A DNA stretch of 64,000 nt, taken from assembly GCA_021733945.1 (NCBI GenBank), contig JAIPJX010000001.1:3707-67706 (forward strand), written 5' to 3'. The notes under the pieces are model-generated. The model worked only from the letters and a program-made list of their open reading frames with translations, was not told where the DNA came from and did no database searches. Shown one piece after another: positions 40,331 to 61,441 of this stretch (positions within the stretch are counted from its first letter, which is position 1; each line of letters begins with the position of its first letter). Position numbers and translations under genes: made by a program. This DNA is from Verrucomicrobiota bacterium (GTDB lineage: Bacteria; Verrucomicrobiota; Verrucomicrobiia; Limisphaerales; SIBE01).

Positions 40331-43300
40331 TTACGGCGCAGCCGTTCTGGCGCGGAAGAACCGCTGCGACCCGCTGGGAGTCACGGTCTGTGGGCTGTTG
40401 CTTTCCGTGGCCAGCTGGGTCCACGGTCCGTTGATCGCCGCGGCGCTTTCGAGCGTGCCCGTGAATTCGATCACCAGAGCACCGCCGGCACCCCGGGCGA
40501 AGGTCAACGTCGGCCAGACAAAGCCCGGCTGGAGCAGCGCCCCCGCCCGATACGCCCCGATCGACAACGGATCCGAAGCGTCGTTGATCAGATGCACCCC
40601 TTCCTTCGAGGAGGTGAAGAGTTCGAGCAACGGTGCCGCCTCCTGATTCGAATCGCTCTGGAACCAGAGGATCCGGACCGGATAATACCCGGTGGATGCC
40701 GCAACGACATCAAACGAAAGCGTGCGTCCGTAGTAGCCCGGAATCCGGTCGTTCACACCGCCGGAATCGTCGAACAATCCGAGCACCGGACCAGCCGGAG
40801 TAAAGCCTGCGTTGGCTTTGTACCCGCCTTCGGTGTGCAGACCGATCTTGTAATAACCTTCCCCCAGGTGCAGGTAGGTCATGATTTCAATGACGTCGCC
40901 CTGCATGGCGGAAACAAGGCCGGTGAGATTCGGGATGGGACCGTCCCCGGGAAACCGGTCGGTCTCCGGTTCCTGCTCCGGCGCGAGACCGAACCAGTTG
41001 ATCACTCCCTCGGCCGTGGCGGGCGTTACCTTCCATTCGAAACCAAAGGCGGGATCGGCTTCATTGTAATAGTTCCGACCGAGCGTCGCGTTGACCAGCT
41101 TGCCGGCAATCTGCTGCTCGGCGAGGTCGGCCCGATCCTCGTGAACCGCGGGCACCTCGGATTGTTCGGAACTGATCTGCGTGGTGTTCACCACAAACCC
41201 GCGCTTCGAAGTGTCCAAGGTGCTCAAACGCCCGAGGGCCGGCAACACCGTGTACGGACCAACCGCCAGGGGGAACTCCTGCGATTCGCGCTTTCCACCC
41301 ACTTCAACGGACAGAGCCACGGTATGCAGCCCCGTTGGCAACAGGACCGGGTTCTTCGCGGTGATCAGGGTCACGGCCCCCTGCTTGGAAGCGGACGCGG
41401 TGACCGATTGCCCGTCCACGGAAGCCTGCACCGATGCGGGGTTCGCCTGAAGATCCGCCGTGTCGCTGAGCTCGATCTCAAATCCGTAGGCGTTTCCACG
41501 GAACGCAGCAGCCAGGCTGATCCCGGTGTTTTCGCTCAACGTGATGACACCGGACTCCATCCAGTCCACCGCCCATCCGTCCGATGCACCCTCCTGGAAG
41601 GCGGAAAACGCGATGGTCTGCCCGGGCGTCAGTCCCAGCGCCGCAAGCGGCAGACGCGCTTCCATCGAATCACCCTGACGAGTAAACTCGAAGTCGACCA
41701 GCAGCGGATTCTCGTCGTCGGCAGGGTCAAACACGGCGATGCCGTTGGCTTTGCCGTCGCGCCAGCCGACCTGAACAAAAAGCTCGGACCCAATGGCGCT
41801 CGCCACCTGGGTCGGATTGCCTTCATACGAATCATTGAAAAAACTGCCCGTCGCCGGGTCGTTGTCCGTGTCCAGCATCCAGTGATAGTAGTAGCGATTG
41901 GACTTGCCTTCGGGAGTCTCTTCCACGGACGGGAGAATCGTGCCGTAAACCGCCATGCGCAGCACCAGATCGCCACCGTCCAGGGTTGCTTCAATCCGTT
42001 TGATGTCGCCGCTCGAATCGGCCAGATCCTGCGGATCATCGACACCCACAACCGGTGCCTGCGACGATGAGACCGGTTTCAGCGCAATCACCGCGGATTC
42101 CGCCCAGTCGACCGCCCATCCATCCGAGGCCCCTTCCTGGAAGGCCGACAACGCAACAATCTGCCCCGGCGCGAGACCCAGAGCCGCGAGCGGAAGCACG
42201 GCCGTGAGTGTATTGCCACTCCCCTGGTACCGGAACCCGACCAGCAACGGATTTTCGTCATCCGCCGGATCGTACGCAGCGACCCCATTGGGTTTGCCGT
42301 CGCGCCAGCCCACCTGGACAAAGAGCTCGGCTCCGATCGGCCGGGTCACCCCGGTTGGATTGCCCTCGTAGGAATCGTTGACGAAACTGCCCGTGGCCCG
42401 GTCGTTGTCGGTGTCCAGCATCCAGTGGTAGTAGTAACGGTTGGTTTTCTCCGCCGGTGTCTGCGCGGCCAGCGGCGTCGCCACACCCTGAACGTTCATC
42501 GACAAATAAAGGCTGTCTCCAAGGACGTACGCGCCCACGCCCCGAATATCACCGCTGCTGTCCCCCAGATCCGATGGATCGGCTATCGCCGCGATCTCCG
42601 CGGCCGGCCCCTTCAGGGTGACCTTCCCGGATTCCATCCAATCCACCGCCCATCCATCCGATGCGCCTTCCTGAAAAGCCGAAAGGGAAATTGTCTGACC
42701 CGGTGCCAGCCCCAGGGACCGCAAAGGAATCGTTGCCGTCAGGGTGTTTCCACTGGCCTGGAAAGGGAAATCGGTCACCAGTGGATTCTCATCATCCGCC
42801 GGATCGTAGGCGGCCACGCCATTCGGTTTGCCGTCACGCCAGCCCACCTGAACGAACAACTCAGCTCCGATTGGCCGCGCAACGCCGGTTGGATTGCCTT
42901 CATAGGAATCGTTGACAAAACTGCCCGTGGCCCGGTCGTCGTCCGTGTCCAGCATCCAGTGATAGTAGTAACGGTTGGTTTTCTCCGCCGGTGTCTGTTC
43001 CGCCGAGGGTGCCGCAACCCCCTGAACGGTCATCCAGAGATTCAAATTGTCTCCGATCACATACGCGCCAACACTCCGGATATCGCCGCTGCTGTCGCCC
43101 AGATCCCCGGAATCCGGGATGGAAACGCCCGGAACCTCGGGTCCTTTCAGGCTCAGCGTGGCCGACTCCATCCAATCCACAGCCCAGCCGTCGGACGACC
43201 CCTCCTGGAAGGCGGACACGGCTATCGTCTGCCCCGCGACCAGACCGAGTGACTGCAGCGGGATCATGGCGCTGATGGTGTTTCCGCTGGCTTGAAAGCT

Positions 43301-43792
43301 GAAATCCGTCACCACCGGATTTTCGTCGTCCGCCGGATCGTAGGCGGCGACCCCGTTGGGTTTGCCGTCGCGCCAACCGACCTGCACGAATAATTCGGCC
43401 CCAACAGGTCGGGCGACTCCGGTGGCGTTGCCCTCATACGAACTGTTGACGAAACTCCCCGTGGACGCATCGTTGTCCGTATCAAGGATCCAATGATAGT
43501 AATACCGGTTGTTCTTGCCCTCCGGTGTCTGACCCATCGAAGGTGCCGCCACCCCTTCCACGGTCATCGACAGCTGGAGCATGTCACCGAGCACGGAGGC
43601 GTGGATTGCACGAATATCGCCACTGCTGTCGGCCAGGTCCTGCGGATCCATCACACTCGCGGATTCCTCCGCGCCCACCGACGACCAGGTCATCGGCAGG
43701 GTAAGCAGGGACACTACACAGCAGGCGCGGATCAGCGTTCGCACGCCCCGTTTTCGTTTTGTAGAGGTTAGTTTCAAGTGGGTTTTTCTCAT
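40331..43792 (-). CDS. Secreted protein with four tandem ~178-aa repeats of an unassigned module, Ig-like and PA14-like regions, and a conserved C-terminal motif
   Basis: Signal peptide (ATG at 43792; an in-frame GTG at 43807 is also possible). Four copies of D-x-x-DL-x-DSSGDI...NRYYYHW-x-LDTD-x-D...GAELFVQVGWRDGKPNG...AFQEG-x-SDGWAVDW. The tail reads ...GTLESAAAINGPWTQL...RFFRAR. Confidence 0.85.
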   Translation of the reverse strand: MRKTHLKLTSTKRKRGVRTLIRACCVVSLLTLPMTWSSVGAEESASVMDPQDLADSSGDIRAIHASVLGDMLQLSMTVEGVAAPSMGQTPEGKNNRYYYHWILDTDNDASTGSFVNSSYEGNATGVARPVGAELFVQVGWRDGKPNGVAAYDPADDENPVVTDFSFQASGNTISAMIPLQSLGLVAGQTIAVSAFQEGSSDGWAVDWMESATLSLKGPEVPGVSIPDSGDLGDSSGDIRSVGAYVIGDNLNLWMTVQGVAAPSAEQTPAEKTNRYYYHWMLDTDDDRATGSFVNDSYEGNPTGVARPIGAELFVQVGWRDGKPNGVAAYDPADDENPLVTDFPFQASGNTLTATIPLRSLGLAPGQTISLSAFQEGASDGWAVDWMESGKVTLKGPAAEIAAIADPSDLGDSSGDIRGVGAYVLGDSLYLSMNVQGVATPLAAQTPAEKTNRYYYHWMLDTDNDRATGSFVNDSYEGNPTGVTRPIGAELFVQVGWRDGKPNGVAAYDPADDENPLLVGFRYQGSGNTLTAVLPLAALGLAPGQIVALSAFQEGASDGWAVDWAESAVIALKPVSSSQAPVVGVDDPQDLADSSGDIKRIEATLDGGDLVLRMAVYGTILPSVEETPEGKSNRYYYHWMLDTDNDPATGSFFNDSYEGNPTQVASAIGSELFVQVGWRDGKANGIAVFDPADDENPLLVDFEFTRQGDSMEARLPLAALGLTPGQTIAFSAFQEGASDGWAVDWMESGVITLSENTGISLAAAFRGNAYGFEIELSDTADLQANPASVQASVDGQSVTASASKQGAVTLITAKNPVLLPTGLHTVALSVEVGGKRESQEFPLAVGPYTVLPALGRLSTLDTSKRGFVVNTTQISSEQSEVPAVHEDRADLAEQQIAGKLVNATLGRNYYNEADPAFGFEWKVTPATAEGVINWFGLAPEQEPETDRFPGDGPIPNLTGLVSAMQGDVIEIMTYLHLGEGYYKIGLHTEGGYKANAGFTPAGPVLGLFDDSGGVNDRIPGYYGRTLSFDVVAASTGYYPVRILWFQSDSNQEAAPLLELFTSSKEGVHLINDASDPLSIGAYRAGALLQPGFVWPTLTFARGAGGALVIEFTGTLESAAAINGPWTQLATESNSPQTVTPSGSQRFFRARTAAP
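41528..43648 (-). repeat. Four tandem in-frame coding repeats, period ~534-543 bp
   Basis: Repeat units start at protein residues 54, 232, 410 and 591 (numbered from 43807). Long identical peptide blocks and clearly alignable DNA between units. Confidence 0.85.
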
Positions 43793-44026
43793 AGAGCATC
43801 CTTTCACAACTGCATCCCTCTCCTTGACGCGCGCGCCAACGAATTGGTGACAGCGAGTTTAGGTCATTTTGCAGGTATCTCGAAACAATTTTCGTCAACC
43901 CCACCACTTCTGGACTGTGTTCGGACGTTGGGACGAAGCGCAGTGCGATTTTGTATGGGTGTGGAGATGTCCTCGTTGTGCGGATTCCTCGCTGCCTGCA
44001 GTGGAAGTGATTGAGATTCTGAGAGA

Positions 44027-44250
44027 GTGTTTGTGGCTTTGCCGCCCGGAGTTTCAGAAGGATTTGCGCCTTCACGCAAAACCAAAGCGGCGTCGGCGCT
44101 GCGCTCTGCCGCACGCACTCCAAAACACCGTCGTTCTTCGGACCCCATCCCCTGGAATCCATCCCAACTCCAAAAATCAATCCCTTCGCTCCCACAAACC
44201 CGCCGCCCTGTGGAGTGCGGCGGCAGAGCGCAGCGCCGACGCCGCTTTGG
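44027..44250 (+). repeat. Interspersed repeat family 1, copy C, with an added inverted arm forming a long hairpin
   Basis: Same blocks as copies A and B. In addition, 44082-44121 pairs with 44212-44250 (31 perfect bp, a 1-nt bulge, then 8 bp). Confidence 0.65.
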
Positions 44251-44504
44251 ACACTTCCCACAAAAAACGACAGGGTCCTCCCCATACATTCCAGTGTCAA
44301 AAACGAAGCACTCCCGATTCCGTATCCACCGCCCCTGCCGGAGGCAGGAACCCGCTCCAAGCAGACTGCCCCAATTCCGAACCCCCTAACCCAAGGGCAA
44401 TGCGGTTCGCACAACCCTGCCCGTTCCCAACCAAATGCGAGAGGATCGAGCTTCTCCGATTCCTGACAAAGCCGACGGATGGACAGGGATGATACTCTTG
44501 CTCC

Positions 44505-47500
44505 GTGAAAAGTCAGGATTTCGAAGTCTGGTCCGGCACCGTTCAACAGGCCTTGGCGCTGGCGATCTGCCTGCTGACCTTCGGCTGCGGAGAGTCCGCG
44601 ACACCTGTTCGGACCGGTGTTGACGCCGCCAGGAAGGAGAACCCCGGACCACTGATCCGATCCACCGAACTCAAACCCTCCGTTGTGCCTGGTCCGAATG
44701 CGCCCCTTTTCGAATCCCTGTCCGCACAACAAACCGGCGTTGCGTTCGTGAACCCACTGCTGATCGATCATCCCCTGAATGCCCTCAACGGATCCGGGTT
44801 CGTGTGCGGCGGTGTTTGCATCGGGGACATCAATGGCGATGGGCGTCCGGATCTCTATCTGATCAGCGGATCCGGACGAAACCGTCTCTACCTGCAGAGC
44901 GGCGATGTTCAATTCACCGACGCAACCGATGCAACGGGAGTGGACGGCGGAGAGGCGTGGGGTGCGGGGGGGGCGTTGGTGGATATCGACAACGACGGAG
45001 ATCTGGACATTTACGTGTGCAACTACGACTCACCGAATCAACTTTACATCAACGACGGCACTGGCGGGCGCTTCATGGAATCGGCCAGGCAATACGGGCT
45101 TGATGTGGTGGATTCGAGCCTGATGCCGACCTTTGCGGACTTTGACAACGACGGGCATCTGGATCTTTTCCTGCTGACAAACCGGTACTATCGACCGGAA
45201 GGGCGTCCGAACCGGCCGCCGGTCGGGTTCCAGGGGGGGAAACCCCACATACTCCCAGAGTTTCAGAAGTATTACGGCCTCCGGCAGGTGGGGCCGGGCA
45301 ACTACACGGCGGACACCTGCGGGCGTCCCGATTACCTCTTCCGAAACAACGGAAACGGAACGTTTTCGAACGTGACCGCGCGCGCGGGAATCCGAGAGCC
45401 CGGACACGGCCTTTCAGCCACCTGGTGGGATTACAACAACGACGGCTGGCTCGATCTGTATGTTGGCAATGATTTCACGGATCCGGATCATCTGTATCGG
45501 AACAACAAGGACGGCACCTTCCTCGATGTGATCGCCGACACGCTGCCCATCACCTCATGGTCCACGATGGGTGCCGATTGTGCTGATCTCAACAACGACG
45601 GTCGGCTCGACTTCATGAGCGCCGACATGGCGGCAACCACCCATTACAAGGCCAAAATCACCTCGGGAGACATGGGCGATCGTCGGTGGTTCCTCGAAAA
45701 TGCCTGGCCGCGGCAGACGATGCGCAACACGGTTTTTCTCAACACGGGAACGGACCGGTTTCAGGAGGTGGGTTTTATGACCGGACTTGCCGCAACGGAC
45801 TGGACCTGGGCGGTGAAACTCGCCGATTTCGACAACGACTCCCGGGTCGATGTGTTTGTAACCAACGGCTCCTCGCGCATGGCCACGGACGCGGATTTCC
45901 CGGTCAACCCGGGCATGCTCATCGGTCGCACCGAATGGGACCTTTGGAAGGACAAGCCCACCCTGAAGGAACAGAACCTGGCGTTCCGCAATGAAGGGAA
46001 TCTGCGTTTCTCCAATCAGAGCACTCCATGGGGACTGGATCACGTCGGAATGAGTTACAGCGCCGCATGCGGGGACCTCGATGGAGACGGAGACCTCGAT
46101 CTCGTGGTCGCAAACCTCGACGAGCCGGTGGCGGTCTACCGGAATCGCGGACACGATCAACACCGCATCGTGATCGAACTGCGTGGCACGGCCAGCAACC
46201 GGTCCGGGATCGGCGCTGTCGTCCGGCTCCACACTGCTTCGGACGGACCTCAGATCCGGCAGATGAACCCTGCCACGGGGTTTCTCTCATCCAACGAACC
46301 GGTCATTCACTTCGGCCTCGGAAAATCGGCAGCCATCGACAAACTTTCCGTTTCCTGGCCGTCGGGCCGGATCCAGGAATTCGAAGGGCTCGTTTCGGAC
46401 CAAAGGTATGTGATTACTGAACCTGGGGACGACACACTCGCGGCCACACCGAAAGGCAGCGCCGCCCCCCCGCAGTTCACGGACGTGGCGCACGAGACGG
46501 GGCTGCGCTTCGAACACCGCGAAACTCCCTTCGACGATTACGCGCGGCAACCCCTGCTGCCCGGTAAACATTCCCAACTGGGCGGCGGCATGGCCTGGGG
46601 CGACGCGGACGGAGACGGCGATGAAGATCTGTTCGTGTCCGGAGCGGCCGGGCAGGCTGGCCGCCTGTTCCTTCGGCAGCCCAACGGACGATTCACTCTC
46701 AGTGCGCTGGCGACCCGGGTGTTTGAAGCCGACAAGGCGTTCGAGGACATGGCACCGCTCTGGTTTGATTCCGACAGCGACGGCGACATGGATCTCCTGG
46801 TCACCAGCGGCAGTGTGGAAGGGGAGGAGACCGATCCCAAACTCGAGGATCGCCTCTATCTCAACGACGGCAAAGGAGGGTTTCGGCGCGCCTCGGCGGA
46901 TGTGTTTCCTGGTGCCCGGATCTCCAGCGGGGTGGCGGTCGCCGGCGACATGGATGGCGACGGCGATCTGGACCTGTTCATCGGCGGCCGGGTCGTTCCC
47001 GGACGGTATCCCGAAACACCCGAGAGCCGGTTGCTCCGCAATGAGGGCGGTGTGTTTTCCGACGTCACCGACACTCTCGCACCCGGGCTTAAACGCGTGG
47101 GTTTGGTCACCGGCGCTCTTTGGTCCGATGCCAACGGCGACGGCGCGCTTGATCTCCTGATCACCTGCGAATGGGGCCCCGTTTATTGTTTCATCAACAC
47201 CAGCGGTGTTCTTCAAAATCAAACCCGTGAATCCGGACTGGCCGATCGAACCGGCTGGTGGAATTCCATCACCGGTGCGGACGTCGATCAGGACGGGGAC
47301 ATCGATTTTTTCGTCGGCAACGTCGGACTCAATACGAAATACGGCGAACCGAGCGCATCAAAACCCGCCGTCCTGTTCCACGGGGACATGGAAGGCAATG
47401 GAATCAAGCGGATCGTCGAAGCGAAACCCCATTCGCTGGGACTGGTCCCCGTTCGCGGGCGGAGTCATACTGCTTCGGCGATGCCTTTCGTGGCGGAGAA

Positions 47501-48260
47501 ATTTCCAACGTACCGGAGTTTCGCCTCCGCCTCCCTTGCGGCGATCTACACCGAGAAACAACTCGGCGAAGCGCTACGACTCGAGGCCGTTCATTTTGAA
47601 TCAGGCCTGCTGATGAACGACGGACACGGAAGGTTTGCATGGCGCTCGATCCCGCGACTGGCACAGAGCTCGCCGGGTTTTGGTGTCGTCGCCACGGAGA
47701 TCGACGGGGACGGTCGGGTCGACATCCAGATGGTCCAGAACCTGTACAGCCGGGAGCCCGAGACCGGACTTTGGCGTGGCGGCATCGGGGTGACATTGAT
47801 TGGAGGCCAAACCGGCTTTCACCTCGCCGAAGCCGATCAGACGGGACTGGTGGTCGCCGGTGATGCCAAGGGATTAACCGTCGCGGACTTGAATCTCGAC
47901 GGATGGCCGGACTTTGCCATCACTCAAAACAACGGCCCCCTGCTTGCCTTTCAGAACCGCGGCAACCCGGGCGTCAAACCGCTTTCAATCCGGCTGGCCG
48001 GTCCGATCGGGAACCCCACCGGGATCGGATCCCGGGTCCGCGTGTCCCATGCCGACGGAACCACACAGACTGCGGAAATCTACGGAGGCAGCGGCTACCT
48101 GTCCCAATCCACCGCAACCCTCTTTTTCGGCAGGGCCAAAAGCCCCATCACCTCGGTGCAAACCCGTTGGCCCGACGGCCGCGTGACCACCACGAGCCTG
48201 AGCGCCGGGCAGGACCAATTGATCATTCCGCCTTCTCCTGAGAGCGTGTCTGAAAAATAG
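44505..48260 (+). CDS. CRTAC1/ASPIC-UnbV family lipoprotein with two FG-GAP/VCBS + UnbV_ASPIC modules (1251 aa)
   Basis: GTG start and lipobox LLTFGCG. Many DxNxDGxxD FG-GAP loops (DINGDGRPDLY, DIDNDGDLDIY, DFDNDGHLDLF). Two UnbV-like ends (SGIGAVVRLHT...VSWPSG and GIGSRVRVSH...TRWPDG). Confidence 0.9.
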   Translation: MKSQDFEVWSGTVQQALALAICLLTFGCGESATPVRTGVDAARKENPGPLIRSTELKPSVVPGPNAPLFESLSAQQTGVAFVNPLLIDHPLNALNGSGFVCGGVCIGDINGDGRPDLYLISGSGRNRLYLQSGDVQFTDATDATGVDGGEAWGAGGALVDIDNDGDLDIYVCNYDSPNQLYINDGTGGRFMESARQYGLDVVDSSLMPTFADFDNDGHLDLFLLTNRYYRPEGRPNRPPVGFQGGKPHILPEFQKYYGLRQVGPGNYTADTCGRPDYLFRNNGNGTFSNVTARAGIREPGHGLSATWWDYNNDGWLDLYVGNDFTDPDHLYRNNKDGTFLDVIADTLPITSWSTMGADCADLNNDGRLDFMSADMAATTHYKAKITSGDMGDRRWFLENAWPRQTMRNTVFLNTGTDRFQEVGFMTGLAATDWTWAVKLADFDNDSRVDVFVTNGSSRMATDADFPVNPGMLIGRTEWDLWKDKPTLKEQNLAFRNEGNLRFSNQSTPWGLDHVGMSYSAACGDLDGDGDLDLVVANLDEPVAVYRNRGHDQHRIVIELRGTASNRSGIGAVVRLHTASDGPQIRQMNPATGFLSSNEPVIHFGLGKSAAIDKLSVSWPSGRIQEFEGLVSDQRYVITEPGDDTLAATPKGSAAPPQFTDVAHETGLRFEHRETPFDDYARQPLLPGKHSQLGGGMAWGDADGDGDEDLFVSGAAGQAGRLFLRQPNGRFTLSALATRVFEADKAFEDMAPLWFDSDSDGDMDLLVTSGSVEGEETDPKLEDRLYLNDGKGGFRRASADVFPGARISSGVAVAGDMDGDGDLDLFIGGRVVPGRYPETPESRLLRNEGGVFSDVTDTLAPGLKRVGLVTGALWSDANGDGALDLLITCEWGPVYCFINTSGVLQNQTRESGLADRTGWWNSITGADVDQDGDIDFFVGNVGLNTKYGEPSASKPAVLFHGDMEGNGIKRIVEAKPHSLGLVPVRGRSHTASAMPFVAEKFPTYRSFASASLAAIYTEKQLGEALRLEAVHFESGLLMNDGHGRFAWRSIPRLAQSSPGFGVVATEIDGDGRVDIQMVQNLYSREPETGLWRGGIGVTLIGGQTGFHLAEADQTGLVVAGDAKGLTVADLNLDGWPDFAITQNNGPLLAFQNRGNPGVKPLSIRLAGPIGNPTGIGSRVRVSHADGTTQTAEIYGGSGYLSQSTATLFFGRAKSPITSVQTRWPDGRVTTTSLSAGQDQLIIPPSPESVSEK

Positions 48261-48370
48261 GAACCGCAGAAGGTCCACTTCTTCAACTGCCAAACCGGTC
48301 CGTTTCCAGGGCAGTTGGAGCCTCGTCACCCCGGCTCCTACCTGGAATGAGAGTTTTCAGACACCCTCTT
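48240..48370. repeat. MITE-like repeat family 2, copy 1 (terminal inverted repeats GTGTCTGAAAA / TTTTCAGACAC)
   Basis: A perfect 11-nt TIR (48246-48256 vs 48354-48364), extendable to 17 nt with 2 mismatches. The core aligns in reverse complement to 58499-58560. The left TIR contains the last four codons and the stop of the upstream CDS. Confidence 0.6.
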
Positions 48371-48383
48371 CGACGCAAGCGAA

Positions 48384-48419
48384 GTGCAACCTTTTGTTGC
48401 AGGTGCAACAAAAGGTTGT
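48384..48419. repeat. 36-nt nested palindrome, copy 2 (GTGCAACCTTTTGTTGCAGGTGCAACAAAAGGTTGT)
   Basis: Differs from copy 1 only at one central base. It lies 7 nt from the stop codon of the 958-aa minus-strand gene. Confidence 0.8.
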
Positions 48420-48426
48420 ACCGGGG

Positions 48427-51303
48427 TTATCGTCGGGCGCGGTAGAATTTGATCGTGTCCGAGAACGGGAGGGTGGCGGGGCTTGAGATGGCGGGGACAT
48501 CGGTGTACGGACCCGTCACGGATTCGGAGGACTGCAGGATTCCTTCGTAGGTGATCGTGATTCCAGTAGCGCTGCGGACGATGGCGATGTTCCCGATTTC
48601 ACCGCCCCCGTTGACCGGTTCCACAGGGAGCAGCTGAACCGCGTTCACGGGAGCGCGCGGCGGGTTCCCTGCACCCAGGCCGGTTTCCGTGCTCGCTTCC
48701 AGGATGATGTTCGCGGCCATCAATCCCGGGAACACCAGGTAACTGCCAGCCCCATACTCAGCCGGACCGATGTCCGTCGGAACCTGCACAAATTCGGTCG
48801 GGACGGTGTCTGATGTGGCACGGATGTATTCGGTGAGCGCTTCTCCCGTTGCCGCGTCCACAATCCGGTAGGCACCGGAACGGCCGTCGGCGACTCCCCC
48901 CAGGGCATACACATAGACGTCATAACCGGCCACCACCAAACCGTCGGGAATGCCACTGATGGACACGGTCGTCCGGGTCGCATCTCCGGTGTCCAGATAG
49001 CCGCCCATCAAGGCGGCGTTCGCGGTGCCGACTGCGAACTCGGCTCCATTGTCTTCGCCACGACCATGGGAGGCCCAGGTATTGTTGGATTGCCACTGAA
49101 CGGAGACGCCGGAGGGGCCGCCGCTTGCGTCCACCACTTCGTCCTGAAAGCCGGACATGCCCTGGAGGTTGTTCCAATTGATCTGGACGGCAATCGGCGC
49201 TCCCGCGGAATCCAGGGCACCGAGAGCAAACGTTCCGGTGCCATTCGGTTCATCCGCGCCAAAGTTGAGCCCGATCGGAAGGGCAATTCCGCCAATGGAG
49301 TTCGGGGCGGCAAACATGCCGATGGAGCTGCCGCTCAGGGCGGGACTGCCTGCGACCGGCAGGGGACTGCCTTCCTTGATCCAGGTCACCGCCGCGTTGT
49401 CGGCTCCGACTCCGGCCGTGTGGAGCAGTTCGACGTAATATCGGTTGCCCGCCACCAGGCGTACTGGCGCGGAACGGTTCTCGCAGAAGTCGGGGCATCC
49501 CGGTCGTCGTTGATCCTCGAGCCAGTCGCGTTCCGCATTTCCTATTGGCTCGGAGGCGATGAACGCTTTGTTCACAGGGTCTTCATCGGTGCTCAGCCAG
49601 AGTTCCCCGCGGTTGTCCGAAGACATGAAGAAGATGTAATTGGCCGTCTCGGTTGGCGTGACGAAGCCAGTGATCCTCGAGCCATAATTTTCGGCAAACC
49701 CGGTTGGCCCTTCGAAGGCCCCCAGGAGCCGCTCTTCGGTGGAATGTTCAGGATAACGGGGATCATTCCGGAGGTTGCCCAGACCACCCGTCACGTCGCT
49801 CCAGACCTGCCATTTCAGGACGCCGGAAACAAACTTGAAGGACCTCAGGATCGCGGTGTTCCCCAGAGGCGAGATCCTGTTGCCGGCGTTGTCCCTCAGG
49901 TTTTCCACCCTGAGGGTGAAATCGGTGTCCTCGGTCTGCCTGCTTGTGGTCAGGCGGACCGTCAATGGATCCATCTGCGTGGCGCGGGACACGGTCACCC
50001 CGCCTGAAAGGGAGTAGTTGGCGGCCGTTGTGGCCGTTTCCTTGGTGATCGGCTCGGAGAAACGAATGGTGGCCGAATGCATCGTGTCGCTGCCAATCAC
50101 ACTGGCGATCCTGGGTGCCTTGTTGTCCGCCTCCACGGTCAGAGTCACCTCATCGCTGACCAACGACGTGCCCAGAGTGCCAACGATCACTTTGAACAGC
50201 GCCCCGTTGTCCTCCTCGGGCGTGTAGGGAATCGTGTAGCGCTCGGAGGTGGCACCGGGGATGATCGTGCCATTGCGAACCCACTGAATGAAACGGGGTG
50301 CACCGTAGGGAGAGAAATGCCGCACGCCCACCGCGAACGTCACACGCTCGTTGGCGATGGTGGTGGCATTCACCGGTTGCGCAGTGATCTCCAGTTCCAC
50401 ACCGTTCGGGTCTCCGATGCCGGTGAGGAGCGCCCCGCGAATCGGCTGCAGGGTTGCGGCGGGAGTCGGATCGCCCGATTGCCGCATTGCCACCTGGCCA
50501 AAATCACCGCCGGTTCCCTCCTTCACGACGAACGCAAAACCGTACTGCCCGCCCTCGGTCAGAAGAATCGGCACCTGAGTGGTCTGCTCGGCGCCAGGTT
50601 CCTGAAAGGCATTGCAGCAGCCGGTCTCTTGGGCGATGGGAAGATCCACGCCGGGGATCGGGATTTCGGGACCGGTTTCGTTCAGGTAGAATTGGGAGGC
50701 GTCGTGGCTGCGAACAAAAAAATCGAACTGACCTGTCTTGGGAGCCTTCAACACGCCGGTGATAAGAATTCCATAATTGTCGCCGAGACCCTCAAAATCG
50801 AGTCCGTTCAGGTAAACACCCCGGGTGGGAGTGCGGTTCTGAAAGGCGGCGGAATCCAACAGCGACGCCACGGTCGAGCCGGGAATCCGATCATAGATTT
50901 CGCCCAGCAGAAACCCGAGGTTCTCGATCTCCTCGGTGGCGGTCCTGGCGATCAGAGTTTTCCAGAGCGAAACATTGCCGGCTGGGTCGACAGCGCGCAC
51001 CCGGTAGGCGTGGTTGCTTCCGGGCAACAGTCCCACATCCACCCATTCCAGGGCATCGAGGTGGAGGGGTGGGCTCACGCCATCCTTTTCGACTTCGTAA
51101 GCGACCACTCCTGAATTGTCCGTCGCGGCATCCCAGGCCAACCTGACCAGGCGGGTGCCTTCGAAAACGACCCGAAGATTGCCGGGAGCCGTGGGGGGTT
51201 GCGTGTCGGCGACAATGGCCGTCGAGCTCAAATGGATGTTCCCTCCGGCGTGCGTCGTCATCCCGACGAGCAGGAAGAACGCGGCAAGTATTGTTTTACG
51301 CAT
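48427..51303 (-). CDS. Giant secreted surface protein: FN3 + PA14-like + Ig (I-set-like) + SbsA-type Ig + second PA14-like + unassigned domain + conserved C-terminal motif
   Basis: Start MRKTILAAFFLLVGMTTHAGG. FN3 (PPTAPGNLRV...WDAATDNSGVVAYEV). PA14-like (GQFDFFVRSHDASQFYLN). Ig (ITAQPVNATTIANERVTFAV...WVRNG). Tail ITITYEGILQSSESVTGPYTDV...KFYRARR. Confidence 0.85.
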   Translation of the reverse strand: MRKTILAAFFLLVGMTTHAGGNIHLSSTAIVADTQPPTAPGNLRVVFEGTRLVRLAWDAATDNSGVVAYEVEKDGVSPPLHLDALEWVDVGLLPGSNHAYRVRAVDPAGNVSLWKTLIARTATEEIENLGFLLGEIYDRIPGSTVASLLDSAAFQNRTPTRGVYLNGLDFEGLGDNYGILITGVLKAPKTGQFDFFVRSHDASQFYLNETGPEIPIPGVDLPIAQETGCCNAFQEPGAEQTTQVPILLTEGGQYGFAFVVKEGTGGDFGQVAMRQSGDPTPAATLQPIRGALLTGIGDPNGVELEITAQPVNATTIANERVTFAVGVRHFSPYGAPRFIQWVRNGTIIPGATSERYTIPYTPEEDNGALFKVIVGTLGTSLVSDEVTLTVEADNKAPRIASVIGSDTMHSATIRFSEPITKETATTAANYSLSGGVTVSRATQMDPLTVRLTTSRQTEDTDFTLRVENLRDNAGNRISPLGNTAILRSFKFVSGVLKWQVWSDVTGGLGNLRNDPRYPEHSTEERLLGAFEGPTGFAENYGSRITGFVTPTETANYIFFMSSDNRGELWLSTDEDPVNKAFIASEPIGNAERDWLEDQRRPGCPDFCENRSAPVRLVAGNRYYVELLHTAGVGADNAAVTWIKEGSPLPVAGSPALSGSSIGMFAAPNSIGGIALPIGLNFGADEPNGTGTFALGALDSAGAPIAVQINWNNLQGMSGFQDEVVDASGGPSGVSVQWQSNNTWASHGRGEDNGAEFAVGTANAALMGGYLDTGDATRTTVSISGIPDGLVVAGYDVYVYALGGVADGRSGAYRIVDAATGEALTEYIRATSDTVPTEFVQVPTDIGPAEYGAGSYLVFPGLMAANIILEASTETGLGAGNPPRAPVNAVQLLPVEPVNGGGEIGNIAIVRSATGITITYEGILQSSESVTGPYTDVPAISSPATLPFSDTIKFYRARR

Positions 51304-51501
51304 ATGTTTGGTGCTTCTGACTTCGATCCGCGCTGGAACGTTGGATTCGGACAATCATGGCGCGAATACCAACACACTTAGCAAAGAGTTCATTTCGTGT
51401 AACCCTATTTTATGCTGGTTGACCTCGGGGTGTGCCCCGGGGAAGGCCCGGTCCCCGGCGCTGGTGCCGGTGCCCGAGGCAGACCAAGGCCTGATCAGGG
51501 C

Positions 51502-51532
51502 AAAAAAAGGGGCCGGATTTAAATCCGGCCCC
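51502..51532 (-). terminator. Rho-independent terminator of the 1244-aa gene
   Basis: Palindrome GGGGCCGGATTTAAATCCGGCCCC (51509-51532), followed on the minus strand by a run of seven T. Confidence 0.7.
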
Positions 51533-51556
51533 TTCGTGATTTGATGTTACGTCAGA

Positions 51557-54500
51557 TTATTGACGTGTCCGGTAGAACTTGCCGGATCCGGAGAACGGAA
51601 TCGTTGCCGGGCTCGCGGCTCCGGGCACGTCCGTGAACGGTCCAAGGATGCTGTCCGAGGACTGCAATGTTCCCTGGTAGGTGAGGGTCAGGCTGGTTGC
51701 GGTGCGGGCGATCCCGATTCCGCCGCCTGTGCCACCACCGCCGGCGGGCACTCCGGGCACCGAGCCGACTGCCAGTCCGGTTCCACCGTTGTACAGAGCG
51801 GCCACTTCCGCGGGTGTCAACACCCGGTTCCAGATGGCGATGTCGTCGATTGATCCGACCCAGCGGCGGTTCAGAGCATCGGGGTTTTCTCCGATGAACA
51901 GGTTCTTGGTTCCTGCCGCCAACACGGGTTTGGTTGCATTTACCCCGTAGATCTTGCCGTCGATGTAGATGGCCGTGCCGAACGCCGCACCCGTCGCATC
52001 GCTGACTGCCACGAAATGATGCCAGTTGCCATCATTCACATTCGGCGCGTTGTCCGCTCCTTCACCCACACCACCGGCGTAGGCGATGGAGTTGCTGCCA
52101 CCACGTCGTGCGACGCGGTAGTTGGAGCCTTCACCCTTGGAGATGAGGGCCTGCCAGTCCTTGTCAAAGGCACCCACCTTGAACCAGCCGCCGATCGACA
52201 TGCTGCCTCCGGGGAACTGCAGGTTGTTGTGGTCGCCTCCGGTGATCTCGACGAAGTTCGATCCGTCGAGCACGAGGGCCTGACCGGCTTTGCCTGCGCC
52301 ATACGCAATCGGGGCTGTTCCCCGGGCTGTGCCGTTGAACTTACCGACCGGCTCGTTGAGATTGCCGTCGAAGCTCCAGTAGGCGGTGAGACCCTTGACC
52401 AGATCAACCGACCCGCCAGCGCCAGCGCCGGTGGGGACCAACTGGACCGCGTTCACGGGGGCGCGTGCCGGACTTCCGGCACCAAACCCGGCTTCGGTCG
52501 TTGCTTCAAGGATGATGTTCGAGGCTTTCAGGCCCTTGAACACCAGGTGGGTGCCCGGAGCATAGATCGTCGGGTCCGTGCTGGGCTTGACGATCGAGTA
52601 TTCAGTCGGGCTGGTGGCCGACGTTGCTCGAATGTACTCCGTCAACGGCGCTCCATCCGATGCGTTCACCACCCGATAGGAACCCGAACGTCCGGCGGCA
52701 ACACCACCCAGTGCATACACATAGAGGTCGTAACCGGTCTCGGTCAGGTTTGCGGGAATGCCGGTGATGGTGACGGTCGATTTGGTCGGATCACCCGTGT
52801 CGAGGTAACCCGCCATCAGCTGATGATCCGGGGTGCCGACGGCGAAGTTGTCGCCGTTGGTTTCACCGATGCCGGTGGAGGCCCAGGTGTTGTTGGAGGT
52901 CCACTCAATGCTCAGCCCGGTGGCTACCCCGTTGGCATCGGTGAGAGCAGCGCCGGTTCCCGCCGCGCCAGCCAGGTTGTTCCAGTTGGACTGTGCGAGG
53001 CCCGGCACGCCGGCCCGGTCGGTTGCGCCAAGGGCGAAGGTGCCCGCGTCGTTGGGTTGATCGGCACCAAAGTTGAGGCCGATCGCGATGTTCCGGCTCG
53101 CGGACGTGATGGATTGAGTAATGCCGGCCGCGGCAATCTTGTTGCCCGCGTTATCGGCCAGATTGCGCACGGTCAGAGTGTACTGCGTGGCTTCCGCCTG
53201 TTTGCTGGTTGCCAGCCGGACCGTGGTCGGATTGACCTGGGTTGCGCTCGACACGGTGACTCCGCCGGACAGCGAGTAGTTGGCCGCAACCGTGGCGGAT
53301 GCCTCGGTGACGGGCTCGGAGAACTCGATCGTTACCGAGTTCCACGAATCGGCGGGAGTAGCTTTGACAATGGCCGGCGGACGGGTGTCATTTTCGACGG
53401 TCAATGTGACCTCGCTGCTGGTGACCGCTTTGCCAAGGGTTCCCACAGTGACCTTAAATTTCGCTCCGTTGTCAGCGAGGGAGGTCAAGGGGATGTTGTA
53501 GGTGCTGGCCGAAGCACCCGGGATGAGCGCGCCATTGCGGTACCATTGGTAGAAGACGCCCGCACCGTAGGGGGAGGAGTGGGTGGCCGTCACACTGAAG
53601 CTTGCCGACTCGTTGGCCGTGGAGGTCACGTTGGCCGGCTGTGCGGTGATCGCGAGTTCCGCTCCGACCGCATCGGCCTTGCCCGTGAGGATTGCGCCCC
53701 GGATCGGCTGAAGCTGATCGGCAGGGGTCGGATCGCCGACCTCCCGCATGGCCACCTGGCCCCAGTCACCGCCGCCACCTTCCTTCACCACGAACGCAAA
53801 CCCGTACTGCTTGCCTGCGGTGAGCGAAATCGGCACCTGTGTGGTCTGAGGCGCGCCCACTTCCTGGAATGCGTTGCAACAGCCGGTCTCTTCAGCGATG
53901 TAGAGATCAAACTCGGGATTCGGAATGGCCGGTCCTGCTTCGTTCAAGAAGAACTGCGAGGCGTCATCGCTGCGAACGAAGAAGTCGTACTGACCGGTTT
54001 TCGGCGCGGTCAACACGCCGGTGATCAGGATGCCGTAGTTGTCGCCGTATCCATCGAAGTCCAATCCGTTGACATAAACGCCGCGGGTGGGTTTTTTCTC
54101 GAAAAAGGCATCGGAAAAGACCAGCGAAGCCACGTCCGTGTTTGGAATATTATCGTAGATCTGGCCCAGAAGGAACCCGACGCCGTCCACTTCCTTGACG
54201 GTCTTGGTGGTCAGGGTCTGCCAGGCGGAAGCGTTTCCGGAAACATCGATCGCACGGACCCGATAGCTGTGGTTGCTCTCGGGAAGCAGACCAGTATCGG
54301 TCCATTCCAGAGCGTTGACCAGCAGCGGAGGGGTGGCTCCGTCCTTCTCAACCTCGTAACCCACGCGGCCGGAGTTATCGGTTGCGGCACCCCAGGTGAG
54401 TTTCACAAAGCGTGCGCCGGCAAGAGCGACCTTTGCATTGCCCGGAGCCGTCGGAGGCGTGGTGTCCGATCCGCTGGCGGTGGTTGACAGCTTGATGTTG

Positions 54501-55291
54501 TCGATGTGTGTGTGTTCATTGGCACCACCGGTGCGGCCACCCAGAACGAGTCGGCCGGCGGACGGGAAGAAGTCGGTCTGAAATCCGTCCAAAATGGTAA
54601 CGCCCTTCCAGATCACCGTCAGCTTGGCGGCGTCATCCAGGTTCACCACGAGATGCTGCCAGCACAGGCCGGCCCAGGAAGCGGGATCCATCGGGTCCCC
54701 GCCATTGGCCCAGTAGTCGGCGTCCCTCGGACCGGTCTGAAGGCTGGTCGCGTCGGCGCAGGCGCCGTGCCGGGTGGGCACACTGTGACGAAGAACGGTT
54801 TTGTTGTCGACACGCACCAGGATGCCTTCGATGTCGCCGCCATCCGCGTAGGTGTTTCCGGCCCATGTATCGAACGAGATGGCGATACCGGTGGTGGATC
54901 CGCCCTCCGGAATGCTTCCAGCGAAATTGCCGGCGTTCCCGATGTCACCCAGGACGGGGTCATTCGCGCGGGCGATGCTGATGCTGAATCCGTCGGCGGC
55001 ACGGTCGCCCGTGCTGTTTCCAACGCGCAGGTCGGCTTCGAACTTGAAGGCGGTGATGATTTTTCCGTCATCGATGTCAGGGAAGACAAAGCCGGTGTAC
55101 TGACCTTCAACGGGATAGGTGATTGCCAGAAAGCCACCCGGATTACCGCCGGATTCGACCCAGGGTTGAGTGTTGTTCCCTCCGATCTGGAGACTACTGG
55201 TCGGGTCGCTCGAAAAATCGAACGTCGCCTGACCAGCCTGCACCGTCACTCCGATGAGAGCAAACAGCGCTGCAAGGATTGATTTACGCAT
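51557..55291 (-). CDS. Giant secreted surface protein, paralog of 48427-51303 with extra N-terminal lectin/LamG-like and C-terminal LamG domains
   Basis: Start MRKSILAALFALIGVTVQAGQ. It shares the FN3, PA14-like (ETGCCNAFQE), Ig, SbsA-Ig and NWNNL-containing domains with its neighbour. LamG_3-like segment (WHHFVAV...DDIAIWNRVLTPAEVAALY). Tail LTLTYQGTLQSSDSILGPFTDV...KFYRTRQ. Confidence 0.85.
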   Translation of the reverse strand: MRKSILAALFALIGVTVQAGQATFDFSSDPTSSLQIGGNNTQPWVESGGNPGGFLAITYPVEGQYTGFVFPDIDDGKIITAFKFEADLRVGNSTGDRAADGFSISIARANDPVLGDIGNAGNFAGSIPEGGSTTGIAISFDTWAGNTYADGGDIEGILVRVDNKTVLRHSVPTRHGACADATSLQTGPRDADYWANGGDPMDPASWAGLCWQHLVVNLDDAAKLTVIWKGVTILDGFQTDFFPSAGRLVLGGRTGGANEHTHIDNIKLSTTASGSDTTPPTAPGNAKVALAGARFVKLTWGAATDNSGRVGYEVEKDGATPPLLVNALEWTDTGLLPESNHSYRVRAIDVSGNASAWQTLTTKTVKEVDGVGFLLGQIYDNIPNTDVASLVFSDAFFEKKPTRGVYVNGLDFDGYGDNYGILITGVLTAPKTGQYDFFVRSDDASQFFLNEAGPAIPNPEFDLYIAEETGCCNAFQEVGAPQTTQVPISLTAGKQYGFAFVVKEGGGGDWGQVAMREVGDPTPADQLQPIRGAILTGKADAVGAELAITAQPANVTSTANESASFSVTATHSSPYGAGVFYQWYRNGALIPGASASTYNIPLTSLADNGAKFKVTVGTLGKAVTSSEVTLTVENDTRPPAIVKATPADSWNSVTIEFSEPVTEASATVAANYSLSGGVTVSSATQVNPTTVRLATSKQAEATQYTLTVRNLADNAGNKIAAAGITQSITSASRNIAIGLNFGADQPNDAGTFALGATDRAGVPGLAQSNWNNLAGAAGTGAALTDANGVATGLSIEWTSNNTWASTGIGETNGDNFAVGTPDHQLMAGYLDTGDPTKSTVTITGIPANLTETGYDLYVYALGGVAAGRSGSYRVVNASDGAPLTEYIRATSATSPTEYSIVKPSTDPTIYAPGTHLVFKGLKASNIILEATTEAGFGAGSPARAPVNAVQLVPTGAGAGGSVDLVKGLTAYWSFDGNLNEPVGKFNGTARGTAPIAYGAGKAGQALVLDGSNFVEITGGDHNNLQFPGGSMSIGGWFKVGAFDKDWQALISKGEGSNYRVARRGGSNSIAYAGGVGEGADNAPNVNDGNWHHFVAVSDATGAAFGTAIYIDGKIYGVNATKPVLAAGTKNLFIGENPDALNRRWVGSIDDIAIWNRVLTPAEVAALYNGGTGLAVGSVPGVPAGGGGTGGGIGIARTATSLTLTYQGTLQSSDSILGPFTDVPGAASPATIPFSGSGKFYRTRQ

Positions 55292-59569: not shown

Positions 59570-59676
59570 TCTGTTCGGTTCAATCGAGGGACAAATGCGG
59601 CCGCGTTGAGGGCCCAGCCGGAATGCACGGCGGCACCAGTTCCAAGACCAGCGATTCGAGGGCCCTCACCTTCCCG

Positions 59677-61410: not shown

Positions 61411-61441
61411 AGATCAGCTCTTCGTACGTTCAAAAGTTACT

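Follow-up and report, generated by a model that had tools for sequence, protein, structure and literature searches.

The C-terminal domains (CTDs) of T9SS cargo are Ig-like sandwiches (PMC4804311, PMC11285876, PMC11969387), and short yet functional T9SS CTDs are known, 43-55 aa long, which have 3-5 strands and a basic residue conserved close to their end (PMC11969387). Two further sources report the T9SS in Bacteroidota alone (PMC5445135, PMC11611037). The tripartite signals (LPXTG, PEP-CTERM and GlyGly-CTERM) combine a signature motif with a hydrophobic TM helix downstream of it (PMC3237569).

An earlier note on a 64 kb stretch of bacterial DNA, the whole of which is here called the window, proposed that a C-terminal motif of ~45 aa on three otherwise different giant secreted proteins is a sorting or anchoring tag. 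The tail is found in Limisphaerales and Verrucomicrobiales, which abound in soil, lakes and groundwater and encode many giant lectin-like surface proteins; to our knowledge, no route of export and anchoring has been described for these proteins.

Results

Three minus-strand ORFs of the window share a C-terminal tail, of which the window holds no other copies. The carriers, their tails and two neighbouring genes given for context are as follows.

40331..43807, minus strand: P1 carrier ORF; probable start ATG 43792, 1153 aa
40334..40507, minus strand: P1 tail, putative mini Ig-like module, 58 aa, HMM 84.7 bits; LTFARGAGGALVIEFTGTLESAAAINGPWTQLATESNSPQTVTPSGSQRFFRARTAAP
44505..48260, plus strand: FG-GAP/ASPIC-UnbV (CRTAC1-like) gene, flanked by P1 and P2 and convergent with the latter, without a tail (context)
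48427..51354, minus strand: P2 carrier ORF; probable start ATG 51303
48430..48603, minus strand: P2 tail, putative mini Ig-like module, 58 aa, HMM 101 bits; GEIGNIAIVRSATGITITYEGILQSSESVTGPYTDVPAISSPATLPFSDTIKFYRARR
51557..55291, minus strand: P3 carrier ORF, 1244 aa, P2 paralog
51560..51733, minus strand: P3 tail, putative mini Ig-like module, 58 aa, after a Gly-rich linker, HMM 98 bits; GTGGGIGIARTATSLTLTYQGTLQSSDSILGPFTDVPGAASPATIPFSGSGKFYRTRQ
55700..56560, minus strand: DUF1559/N_methyl prepilin-like gene, immediately upstream of P3 and on its strand (context)

The translations of 40334-40483, 48430-48579 and 51560-51709 match those quoted in the earlier note, and each is the very end of a long ORF on the minus strand. 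An HMM built from the three tails, as that note had suggested, and run on the window in all six frames scored 85-101 bits on the P1, P2 and P3 tails and no more than 5.9 bits anywhere else, returning these three tails alone. The tail is also the only similarity between P1 and P3 by BLASTP (40% identity over 45 aa, E=3e-5). The motif is thus common to all three C-termini, as claimed, but the true module is longer: the conserved unit begins ~10 residues further upstream with the hairpin 'IxIAR..G.hThTY' (one extra strand), so that the module comprises ~53-58 aa.

P1 opens with a signal peptide, after which an uncatalogued domain of ~190 aa is repeated four times; an Ig-like domain, a PA14/GLEYA-type lectin fold and the tail complete the protein. 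Counted from ATG 43792, its 1153 aa equal the length of its ortholog P0268 (1153 aa) and the length first assigned to it. The PA14-like part that had been noticed in P1 has no Pfam match, but it is borne out structurally by the AlphaFold model of the last 394 aa, for which Foldseek matches the Flo5, Epa1 and Marinomonas PA14 lectin domains with E down to 3e-6. P2 has, in order, a signal peptide, FN3, a PA14-like region, Ig, Big_5, a second PA14, an uncatalogued ~240-aa domain and the tail. P3, a paralog of P2 (59-65% identity), has a signal peptide, an N-terminal beta-domain, FN3, PA14, Ig, Big_5, the ~240-aa domain, LamG (Laminin_G_3), a Gly-rich linker and the tail, the LamG domain being inserted between the tail and the body common to both proteins. 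Direct reading of P1, P2 and P3 revealed neither a clear lipobox nor another anchor. In other genomes, tail-bearing genes repeatedly have DUF1559 prepilin-like and FG-GAP/ASPIC genes as direct neighbours on the same strand.

Beyond the window, we identified at least 10,676 representative proteins with the tail at E<=1e-3 (counted as protein clusters at 50% identity), of which 2,361 were found at E<=1e-10. They belong almost wholly to Verrucomicrobiota (Limisphaerales, Pedosphaera-like and Verrucomicrobiales lineages), and single MAGs yield 5-8 tail loci with a pattern that catches 1-17% of tails. The tail family is lineage-restricted and highly expanded, and no curated model in Pfam or NCBIfam matches it at E<=1 (NCBIfam run on 45 tails).

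Verrucomicrobiota also carry a second, longer C-terminal module (~75 aa, '...Y.LQYS..L..GSW...GFYRV..'), which is likewise uncurated, has no Pfam match and, in the PDB, matches discoidin/CBM32 modules only partially and marginally (E~0.003). The short tail and the long module align as homologs over their whole length (hhalign 94.9%, E=4e-8). Both lie at the extreme C-terminus and have the 'FYR' end; the long module has three insertions, and 'S..L..W' where the tail has 'GP[WYF]TD'. The two modules interchange on orthologous P1-type bodies and are paired within some proteins. Judged by their sequences, the short and long forms constitute a single 'FYR'-ending C-terminal family, uncurated and defined here.

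AlphaFold folded the isolated P3 58-mer into 5-6 strands (pLDDT 89.2, pTM 0.71) and the P1 tail, within the model of the P1 C-terminus, into six strands (pLDDT ~90); the tail is predicted to be a compact beta-sandwich of ~53-58 residues that folds autonomously. Foldseek gave weak FN3/Ig-like matches to the tail model (best E 0.46, TMq up to 0.59), and the tail family had no PDB match. Pfam models did not match the tail in whole proteins or in isolated tails. Profile comparison aligned the tail with the Ig_7-type repeats of the proteins P0150 and P0123 (hhalign 97.1%, E=6e-11) over the common core 'QWQ..GPW.D..GAT...Y....FYR'; of these two proteins, P0150 alone matches PF19081. Since the alignment is confined to columns 20-72 of the 93-column Ig unit, the tail lacks the first and last Ig segments (~19 and ~21 residues). 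The tail appears to be a truncated Ig-like domain, reduced to the central strands.

We examined the position of the tail in two samples. Among the top 146 matches, which are ranked by summed score and therefore enriched for multi-copy proteins, 35 carry several copies; in the 111 single-copy matches the tail ends exactly at the C-terminus in 96 and within 3 residues of it in 109. In the stop-to-stop ORFs of 72 genomic loci, a position-unbiased sample that is independent of gene calls, the stop lies no more than 3 codons past the tail in 82 of 84 cases, and ~3% of copies are internal. The predicted C-terminal bias is strong: placement is extreme C-terminal in ~97% of copies, with or without gene calls. 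The earlier note had held that internal copies, or identity with a common Ig-like domain that has no positional bias, would count against a sorting role; internal copies do occur, in ~3% of cases and in a tandem minority, and the Ig-like derivation is borne out (hhalign 97%), whereas the bias persists. The multi-copy proteins carry tandem arrays of two to six copies, or copies that alternate with PKD or long-variant modules. The end of the tail is stereotyped as '[FYW]xR + 2-4 residues', basic in ~90% of 314 tails, and its last five residues are net positive in 285/314.

A Pfam census of 45 carriers identified PA14 (16), LamG (12), Ig_3/I-set (11), PA (6) and Big_5 (6), as well as PKD, GH115_C, InlB repeats and a PQQ propeller, and no cytoplasmic families. 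Carriers in this census have lectin/adhesin-like, extracellular-type domains alone and are not a broad set of enzymes. Most full-length carriers have a signal-peptide-like N-terminus: a crude rule classed 163 of 218 N-termini in this way, and the remainder consists mostly of visibly clipped signal peptides. Among 120 relatives of P3, a terminal tail was found in 91 at E<1e-5 and in ~105 at E<1e-2; among 120 relatives of P1, the tail was found in 78, and about a dozen more carry the homologous long module. These two body families (P1-type and P3-type) always end in the tail or its long homolog. Tails are no better conserved than their bodies and form body-specific subfamilies. As a module, the tail can be separated from the bodies that carry it, which are otherwise unrelated.

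Searches for a known sorting system were negative. Pfam scans of the larger ORFs of the window (~34 of 43), several of which had no Pfam match, found no sortase, exosortase or T9SS gene (SprA/Sov, PorV, PorU, GldKLMN), in agreement with the earlier reading of the window, and 90 flanking genes of other tail loci (+/-10 kb flanks) included no known sorting machinery. No tail matched Por_Secre_tail, CHU_C, PEP-CTERM or other curated models, even at E<=1. Identity with a T9SS CTD was rejected on comparison with three genuine type-A CTDs, to which hhalign assigned a probability of 0.1% with the short tail and of 1% with the long form. In 45 tails, the maximum 17-aa Kyte-Doolittle mean had a median of 0.82 (range 0.28-1.66) and was 0.82-1.22 in the tails of the window, so that a TM helix is not possible in the tail. 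Direct reading found no LPXTG, PEP or GlyGly motif in the tails, and LPXTG/PEP-CTERM identity was rejected, the architecture of motif, TM helix and basic cluster being absent.

Discussion

Taken together, these results show that the tail is a C-terminus-specialised module, folded by prediction, and not a known tag. Of the proposal that it serves for sorting or anchoring, the parts that stand are that the tail is separable, C-terminal and lineage-restricted; support is partial because the tail is Ig-derived, internal or in tandem in ~3% of copies, without a TM helix or T9SS homology, without known machinery nearby, and related to a longer homolog. The reading that we favour, tentatively, as the most likely is that of a folded recognition or retention module that would hold or target its carriers at the cell surface. 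The carriers would leave the cytoplasm by Sec export, after which the tail would act as a folded C-terminal module, read by a recognition partner, and this recognition would target lectin/adhesin-like carriers to the cell surface or retain them there. Such a mode of reading would resemble that of the T9SS Ig-like CTD, which is recognised in its folded state, and not that of a linear sortase-type signal. We infer recognition by a partner; the outcome could be OM translocation or surface attachment, and the tail may be cleaved. A more far-reaching version, which we consider unlikely, is that the short and long 'FYR' modules are the cargo tag of an unrecognised Verrucomicrobiota surface-targeting pathway (OM translocation and/or attachment), in which a folded, reduced Ig-like C-terminal domain would be read by dedicated machinery, an independent invention of T9SS logic that would serve tens of giant lectin-like adhesins per genome.

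Several observations run against a targeting role: copies are not strictly terminal, the tail is homologous to ordinary internal Ig_7-type repeats, and it shows the body-specific subfamilies and unexceptional conservation described above. The narrow, lectin/adhesin-like carrier set is also unlike what a general export signal would predict.

The same observations can be read as those of a plain structural Ig-like cap or spacer of adhesin stalks, with no sorting, anchoring or recognition role, an explanation that we regard as somewhat unlikely. The tail would then be the last small beta-sandwich of the stalk, passed down along with two or three large body families and duplicated now and then, which agrees with the 97% hhalign match to internal Ig_7-type repeats, with tandem and alternating internal copies, with tails that follow body families and are conserved no more than these, with the lack of machinery nearby, and with the dominance of a few related mosaic families among the carriers. 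A cap, however, leaves unexplained that ~97% of copies end 2-4 residues past the last strand at the C-terminus, that two unrelated body families always end in the tail or its long homolog, and that these adhesin-like proteins show no other anchor. Tandem arrays indicate that the fold tolerates downstream sequence, and terminal position is therefore not a folding requirement.

Two further explanations assign the tail a partner or a known machinery. As an assembly or docking module with a dockerin-like logic, it would bind a second copy of itself or a different protein, perhaps through pairing with an exposed edge strand, and so build multi-protein surface structures, with the neighbouring prepilin-like or FG-GAP/ASPIC proteins as possible partners. 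The sheets may have open edges, since the tail lacks ~19 residues from the start and ~21 from the end of the 93-residue Ig unit, tandem copies would suit avidity-type binding, and the two neighbouring gene types are recurrently adjacent on the same strand; yet AlphaFold folds the tail confidently alone, with no sign that it needs a partner strand, and the neighbour association may be a property of the P2/P3 body family and not of the tail, because 37 of the 72 loci carry a P2/P3 body. We consider docking improbable. Far less probable still is membership in a known sorting system (T9SS CTD, PEP-CTERM, LPXTG or GlyGly-CTERM): the C-terminal position on signal-peptide proteins, the basic end and a predicted sandwich fold of the same class as T9SS CTDs (PMC11285876) would suit it, whereas the lack of matches to curated models at E<=1, the type-A CTD comparison (0.1-1%), the impossible TM helix, the missing LPXTG/PEP/GlyGly motifs and the reported confinement of the T9SS to Bacteroidota (PMC5445135, PMC11611037) all speak against it.

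A module of ~55 aa that marks at least 10,000 protein clusters offers a simple means of predicting which proteins of these largely uncultured bacteria make up the surface proteome. The two domain families defined here, the short tail and the long module, are missing from Pfam and NCBIfam, and the vector of tail presence and absence across genomes can serve as input for phylogenetic profiling in a search for machinery. Should the tail prove to be a signal for export or attachment that is read in folded form, the T9SS-type 'Ig-like CTD' principle would gain a second, independent case, and the tail would be a potential display tag. Should it be a structural cap alone, its annotation is still corrected, from sorting peptide to Ig-like domain.

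Comparison with known systems

The LPXTG/sortase, PEP-CTERM/exosortase and GlyGly-CTERM/rhombosortase signals resemble the tail in their extreme C-terminal position, their number per genome and their basic end (PMC3237569), and they likewise sit on otherwise unrelated signal-peptide proteins. The tail differs from them in being, as predicted, a folded soluble beta-domain and not a membrane-spanning peptide, with neither motif nor TM helix, and the shared basic end is not diagnostic without a TM helix.

Homology is detectable between the tail and the Ig_7 (PF19081, 'Ig-like domain CHU_C associated'), Ig_3 and I-set-type repeats of giant Bacteroidota adhesins. Unlike Ig_7, the tail lacks the first and last segments and fails the Pfam model; Ig_7 units are repeated in tandem inside their proteins, whereas ~97% of tail copies are C-terminal.

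From the T9SS CTDs of Bacteroidota cargo (Por_Secre_tail type A and CHU_C type B) the tail is separated by phylum, being found in Verrucomicrobiota, where no T9SS is reported, and by the lack of sequence or profile homology. It halts at the 'G.YR' strand, whereas the aligned type-A CTDs (A9) run ~15-17 residues further, and a minority of tail proteins have tandem or internal copies, which the literature surveyed does not describe for T9SS CTDs. Both occupy the extreme C-terminus of signal-peptide-bearing proteins, which are Sec-exported, often giant and multidomain surface proteins, many per genome and with unrelated bodies, and the tail, whose predicted model has 5-6 strands and weak FN3/Ig-like matches, may fall in the fold class of the T9SS CTD, a compact Ig-like beta-sandwich of 3+4 strands.

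A separable module at the ends of three large proteins

The earlier note had proposed that three large secreted proteins end in a common sorting or anchoring tag of about 45 aa. The three peptides on which this proposal was based are correctly translated, and each is, as claimed, the extreme end of a long minus-strand ORF:

40331-43807, minus strand: P1, probable start ATG at 43792, 1153 aa
48427-51354, minus strand: P2, probable start ATG at 51303
51557-55291, minus strand: P3, start codon ATG at 55291, 1244 aa

Against the 64 kb translated in all six frames, an HMM of the three tails scores 85-101 bits at the three ORF ends and at most 5.9 bits elsewhere. P2 and P3 are paralogs with a common body (59-65% identity), between which and the tail P3 carries an inserted Laminin_G_3 domain and Gly-rich linker, and the tail is the sole part common to P1 and P3 (40% over 45 aa, E = 3e-5, BLASTP). 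Taken together, the HMM scores, the tail-only match and the insertion show that the similarity is real rather than due to chance and that the tail is a separable module. The proposed ~45 aa are common to all three proteins, but the conserved unit starts about 10 residues further upstream, with a hairpin 'IxIAR..G.hThTY' apparent in the alignment with relatives, and thus comprises ~53-58 aa. The PA14-like part that had been noticed in P1 has no Pfam match but is borne out by the predicted structure: the AlphaFold model of the last 394 aa (pLDDT 91.4, pTM 0.84) resembles the PA14/GLEYA lectin domains of Flo5, Epa1 and a Marinomonas adhesin (Foldseek E down to 3e-6, prob 1.0). On direct reading, P1, P2 and P3 have Sec-type signal peptides, and none has a clear lipobox.

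The bodies contain further conserved regions. Residues ~50-760 of P1 (41500-43700, minus strand) consist of four ~190-aa repeats with the consensus 'D..GDI...NRYYYHW.LDTD.D..TG...GWRDGKPNG..YDPADDENP...FQEG.SDGWAVDW.ES', for which no credible family was found in Pfam or NCBIfam; this repeat domain is highly conserved across ~120 verrucomicrobial relatives. P2 and P3 share, at 59% identity, a ~240-aa domain (48610-49280 and 52430-53090, minus strand; P3 residues ~735-955; consensus 'IGLNFGAD.PN..GTFALGA.D.AG...YVYALGGVA.GRSG.YR...NAVQL.P') that recurs in many tail-bearing proteins and has no Pfam match. The 25 nt 5' of the P2 and P3 starts (51304-51328 and 55292-55316, minus strand) also have 'AAGTCAGAA...CAAACAT' in common; judging by this similarity, the paralogs appear to retain the same 5' leader or ribosome-binding context, an argument for the downstream ATG at 51303 as the true start of P2.

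Fold and homology of the tail

For the 58-aa tail of P3 alone, AlphaFold (45-sequence alignment) predicts five to six beta-strands with a mean pLDDT of 89.2 and a pTM of 0.71, and the tail of P1, modelled in the context of the P1 C-terminus, has the same six strands (pLDDT ~90). Because the predicted fold holds in both settings, the tail appears to be a small autonomous beta-domain rather than a linear peptide; hydropathy (median of the maximum 17-aa values, 0.82) excludes a TM helix in the tails. No Pfam or NCBIfam model matches the tail at E ≤ 1, either within the whole proteins or in 45 isolated tails, a sequence search of the PDB returned nothing for it, and Foldseek comparison of the isolated tail with the PDB gave weak FN3/Ig-like neighbours, none of them significant (best E 0.46). 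Profile comparison (hhalign) connects the tail to the Ig_7-type repeat units of giant Bacteroidota adhesins (97.1% probability, E = 6e-11), of which it spans columns 20-72 of 93, ending exactly at the 'YYR' strand; going by this alignment, the tail would be an Ig-like domain from which the opening and closing segments of the complete unit are missing. By hhalign (94.9%, E = 4e-8) it is also homologous from end to end with a ~75-aa module '..Y.LQYS..L..GSW...GFYRV..', hereafter the long variant, that terminates other verrucomicrobial proteins, likewise has no Pfam match and gives marginal discoidin/CBM32 matches among PDB sequences. That the tail is a real, Ig-derived module, with a compact beta-domain as its predicted fold, is firmly supported.

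Abundance and position of the tail

With a 45-tail profile, HMMER was run exhaustively against 1.84 billion representative proteins and identified 10,676 at E ≤ 1e-3, of which 2,361 reach E ≤ 1e-10. Local re-scanning of the best 146 matches yielded 111 single-copy proteins, in which the tail is the exact C-terminal end in 96 and lies within 3 residues of the end in 109, and 35 multi-copy proteins, which are over-represented because the ranking is by summed score. Some multi-copy proteins end in a tandem array of two to six whole modules (P0122, P0125, P0129, P0134). In Limisphaerales-type proteins, the module alternates with PKD-like domains (P0136, P0137, P0133), or each short module is followed by a long variant, which forms the true C-terminus (P0140, P0160, P0201 and genomic locus L068). 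A further group consists of giant adhesins with weak matches (12-31 bits) to internal 'QWQ..GPW..GAT..FYR' Ig-like repeats; among these, P0150 matches Pfam Ig_7, P0124 and P0141 are labelled Luteibaculaceae/Luteibaculum (Bacteroidota), and P0123 has a genuine CHU_C T9SS domain at its C-terminus.

Position was also assessed independently of gene calls, in stop-to-stop ORFs of 72 loci (~970 kb) found by scanning species-representative genomes with the pattern V[TN]GP[YFW]TDVA, which derives from a 9-sequence alignment and covers 1-17% of known tails. Nearly all of these loci are from Verrucomicrobiota (Limisphaerales, Pedosphaera and Verrucomicrobiales; a few MAGs are oddly labelled). Among them are loci of the cultured Limisphaera sp. 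VF-2, whose locus L008 encodes a carrier of ~1,070 aa, and of a complete 6.08-Mb MAG chromosome. The pattern is narrow, so the per-genome counts are lower bounds; given that single MAGs nevertheless yielded 5-8 loci, there are likely tens of carriers per genome. The ORFs number 86, with 87 tail copies. The earlier note had allowed that the motif might simply be strands of a common Ig-like domain with no positional bias: these are indeed the central strands of such a domain, but the bias is strong, with the tail within 3 codons of the stop in 82 of 84 genomic ORFs (71 of these with zero residues past the match). Restriction to C-termini thus holds for ~97% of copies but is not absolute, ~3% being internal and a minority of proteins bearing tandem arrays. 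The end itself is stereotyped: 284 of 314 tails finish in '[FYW]xR' plus 2-4 residues, and the last five residues are net positive in 285. No tail copies were found in viral contigs and phage genomes, a narrow and weakly informative test against a sorting role.

Carrier proteins

Pfam families in 45 full-length carriers
PA14: 16
Laminin_G_3: 12
Ig_3 and I-set: 11 each
PA: 6
Big_5: 6
GH115_C: 4
PKD, InlB B-repeats, PQQ propeller, CarboxypepD_reg: also present

Among the top 25 of the 42 families in this census, there are no cytoplasmic families and few if any catalytic domains. A signal-peptide-like N-terminus was detected in 163 of 218 full-length carriers by a crude rule that also flags 17 of the 39 window genes and is accordingly supporting evidence only; most of the remaining carriers have visibly clipped or mis-started signal peptides. 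In the P3 family, the tail is terminal in 91 of 120 relatives at E < 1e-5 (~105 at E < 1e-2), and nine relatives end in another small beta-rich terminus, '...KIKSVTLVGTTLTVVYE'. In the P1 family, the short tail is terminal in 78 of 120 relatives, about a dozen with the same body end in the long variant, and distant relatives with the P1 repeat domain only, one of them labelled Planctomycetota, have an unrelated 'MYFDDIRLY' C-terminal module. Two unrelated body families therefore essentially always end in a module of the tail family, and in neither were relatives seen that had exchanged it for PEP-CTERM or another known anchor. There is firm support for a C-terminal specialisation of this very large, uncurated family from Verrucomicrobiota, whose members form the ends of exported proteins of lectin or adhesin type.

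In a subgroup of P3-family relatives (P0085, P0092, P0093, P0096, P0105, P0107 and P0109), a different small beta-rich terminus, '...GATKIKSVTLVGTTLTVVYE', has a last hairpin resembling the first two strands of the tail and also ends exactly at a strand end.

Gene neighbourhood

The following genes flank the carriers in the window:

55700-56560, minus strand: DUF1559/N_methyl prepilin-like gene, directly upstream of P3 on the same strand
44505-48260, plus strand: FG-GAP/ASPIC-UnbV (CRTAC1-like) gene, between P1 and P2
39586-40107, minus strand: ECF sigma-70 gene, immediately downstream of P1 on the same strand

The FG-GAP/ASPIC gene has relatives in 21 of the 72 loci and the DUF1559 gene in 16; most of these relatives lie 0-400 bp from a tail-bearing gene on the same strand (adjacency is undercounted because greedy ORF picking sometimes took the wrong strand), and none bears the tail. 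DUF1559 proteins form a large family of paralogs with no assigned function (PMC10632474). Given that 37 of the 72 loci encode P3-type bodies (FN3-PA14-Ig-Big_5), the conserved neighbourhood may reflect this body family rather than the tail. The earlier observation that the window has no sortase, exosortase or T9SS gene agrees with a Pfam scan of its larger ORFs (~34 of 43, several without a match). Among the 90 other flanking ORFs of the loci, nine encode TPR proteins, and the 25 most frequent families include no secretion or sorting machinery.

Window positions 15450-16181 and 17425-18276 (plus strand) group with the FG-GAP/ASPIC and DUF1559 neighbourhood. Two ORFs without a Pfam match that follow the sigma-70 gene (39149-39718 and 37485-39167, minus strand) may be an anti-sigma module. 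Elsewhere, 3645-5996 (plus strand) encodes a 783-aa multihaem cytochrome with MtrC/MtrF-like domains II/IV (Pfam E = 1e-24), an outer-membrane-type decahaem-like protein that is noteworthy for a verrucomicrobial genome, and is adjoined by a cNMP-binding sigma-54 activator gene (254-2827, minus strand). Genes for a prenyltransferase alpha-alpha toroid protein, a DUF116-polyprenyl synthetase fusion (577 aa) and a radical SAM protein lie in a row at 58646-62890 (minus strand), apparently as an isoprenoid-related cluster. Neither an Rfam scan nor a tRNA scan found anything in the window.

Possible functions of the tail

In tandem arrays the fold evidently accommodates further sequence after it, so folding does not require the ~97% terminal position or the stereotyped end; both suggest selection for a terminal function. 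Given this apparent selection and the lack of any other anchor seen on the adhesin-like carriers, we tentatively favour a reading in which the tail would act as a folded domain at the C-terminus through which the proteins are recognised or retained for surface display. The sorting tag of the earlier note is thus partly supported, as a real module with a real positional bias, but one that is not strictly terminal and beside which no sorting machinery was seen. That such a module represents a new folded-CTD targeting pathway of Verrucomicrobiota, T9SS-like but independent, strikes us as fairly unlikely.

Foremost among the rival explanations, though somewhat unlikely, is that the tail caps the proteins as an inert Ig-like structure and was passed down with a few large families; this accords with the homology of the tail to Ig-like domains, the internal copies, the tails without extra conservation and the narrow carrier spectrum, and would leave the apparent selection for a terminal function to be explained. 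A docking or assembly module acting via open sheet edges ranks next and is distinctly improbable, and membership in a known sorting family, ranked last, is hardly credible in view of the comparisons below.

Comparison with known sorting systems

The defining parts of LPXTG, PEP-CTERM and GlyGly-CTERM signals are a motif, a TM helix and a basic cluster (PMC3237569); the tail has the basic end alone and is therefore not a sortase-type signal. T9SS cargo, exported through Sec, ends in a CTD that folds into an Ig-like 3+4 sandwich (PMC4804311, PMC11285876); CTDs of short (43-55 aa, three-strand) and medium (five-strand) form are functional too and have a conserved basic residue near the end (PMC11969387). 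The tail is rejected as a T9SS CTD, with no model match and hhalign probabilities of 0.1-1% against genuine type-A Bacteroidota CTDs.

Literature searches turned up no relevant account of a verrucomicrobial C-terminal module. The Ig-like fold class is already known, as is the idea that secreted proteins can end in a folded domain; what is new is the truncation of the Ig-like domain, how abundant it is, its restriction to a lineage and its lack of an entry in curated libraries. With its putative role in display, the tail offers a concrete starting point for working out how giant adhesins reach the surface of these bacteria. Its closest analogue in logic is the T9SS CTD, from which it differs in that tandem or internal copies are possible and in its lineage, T9SS being reported, in the passages cited here, in Bacteroidota only (PMC5445135, PMC11611037).
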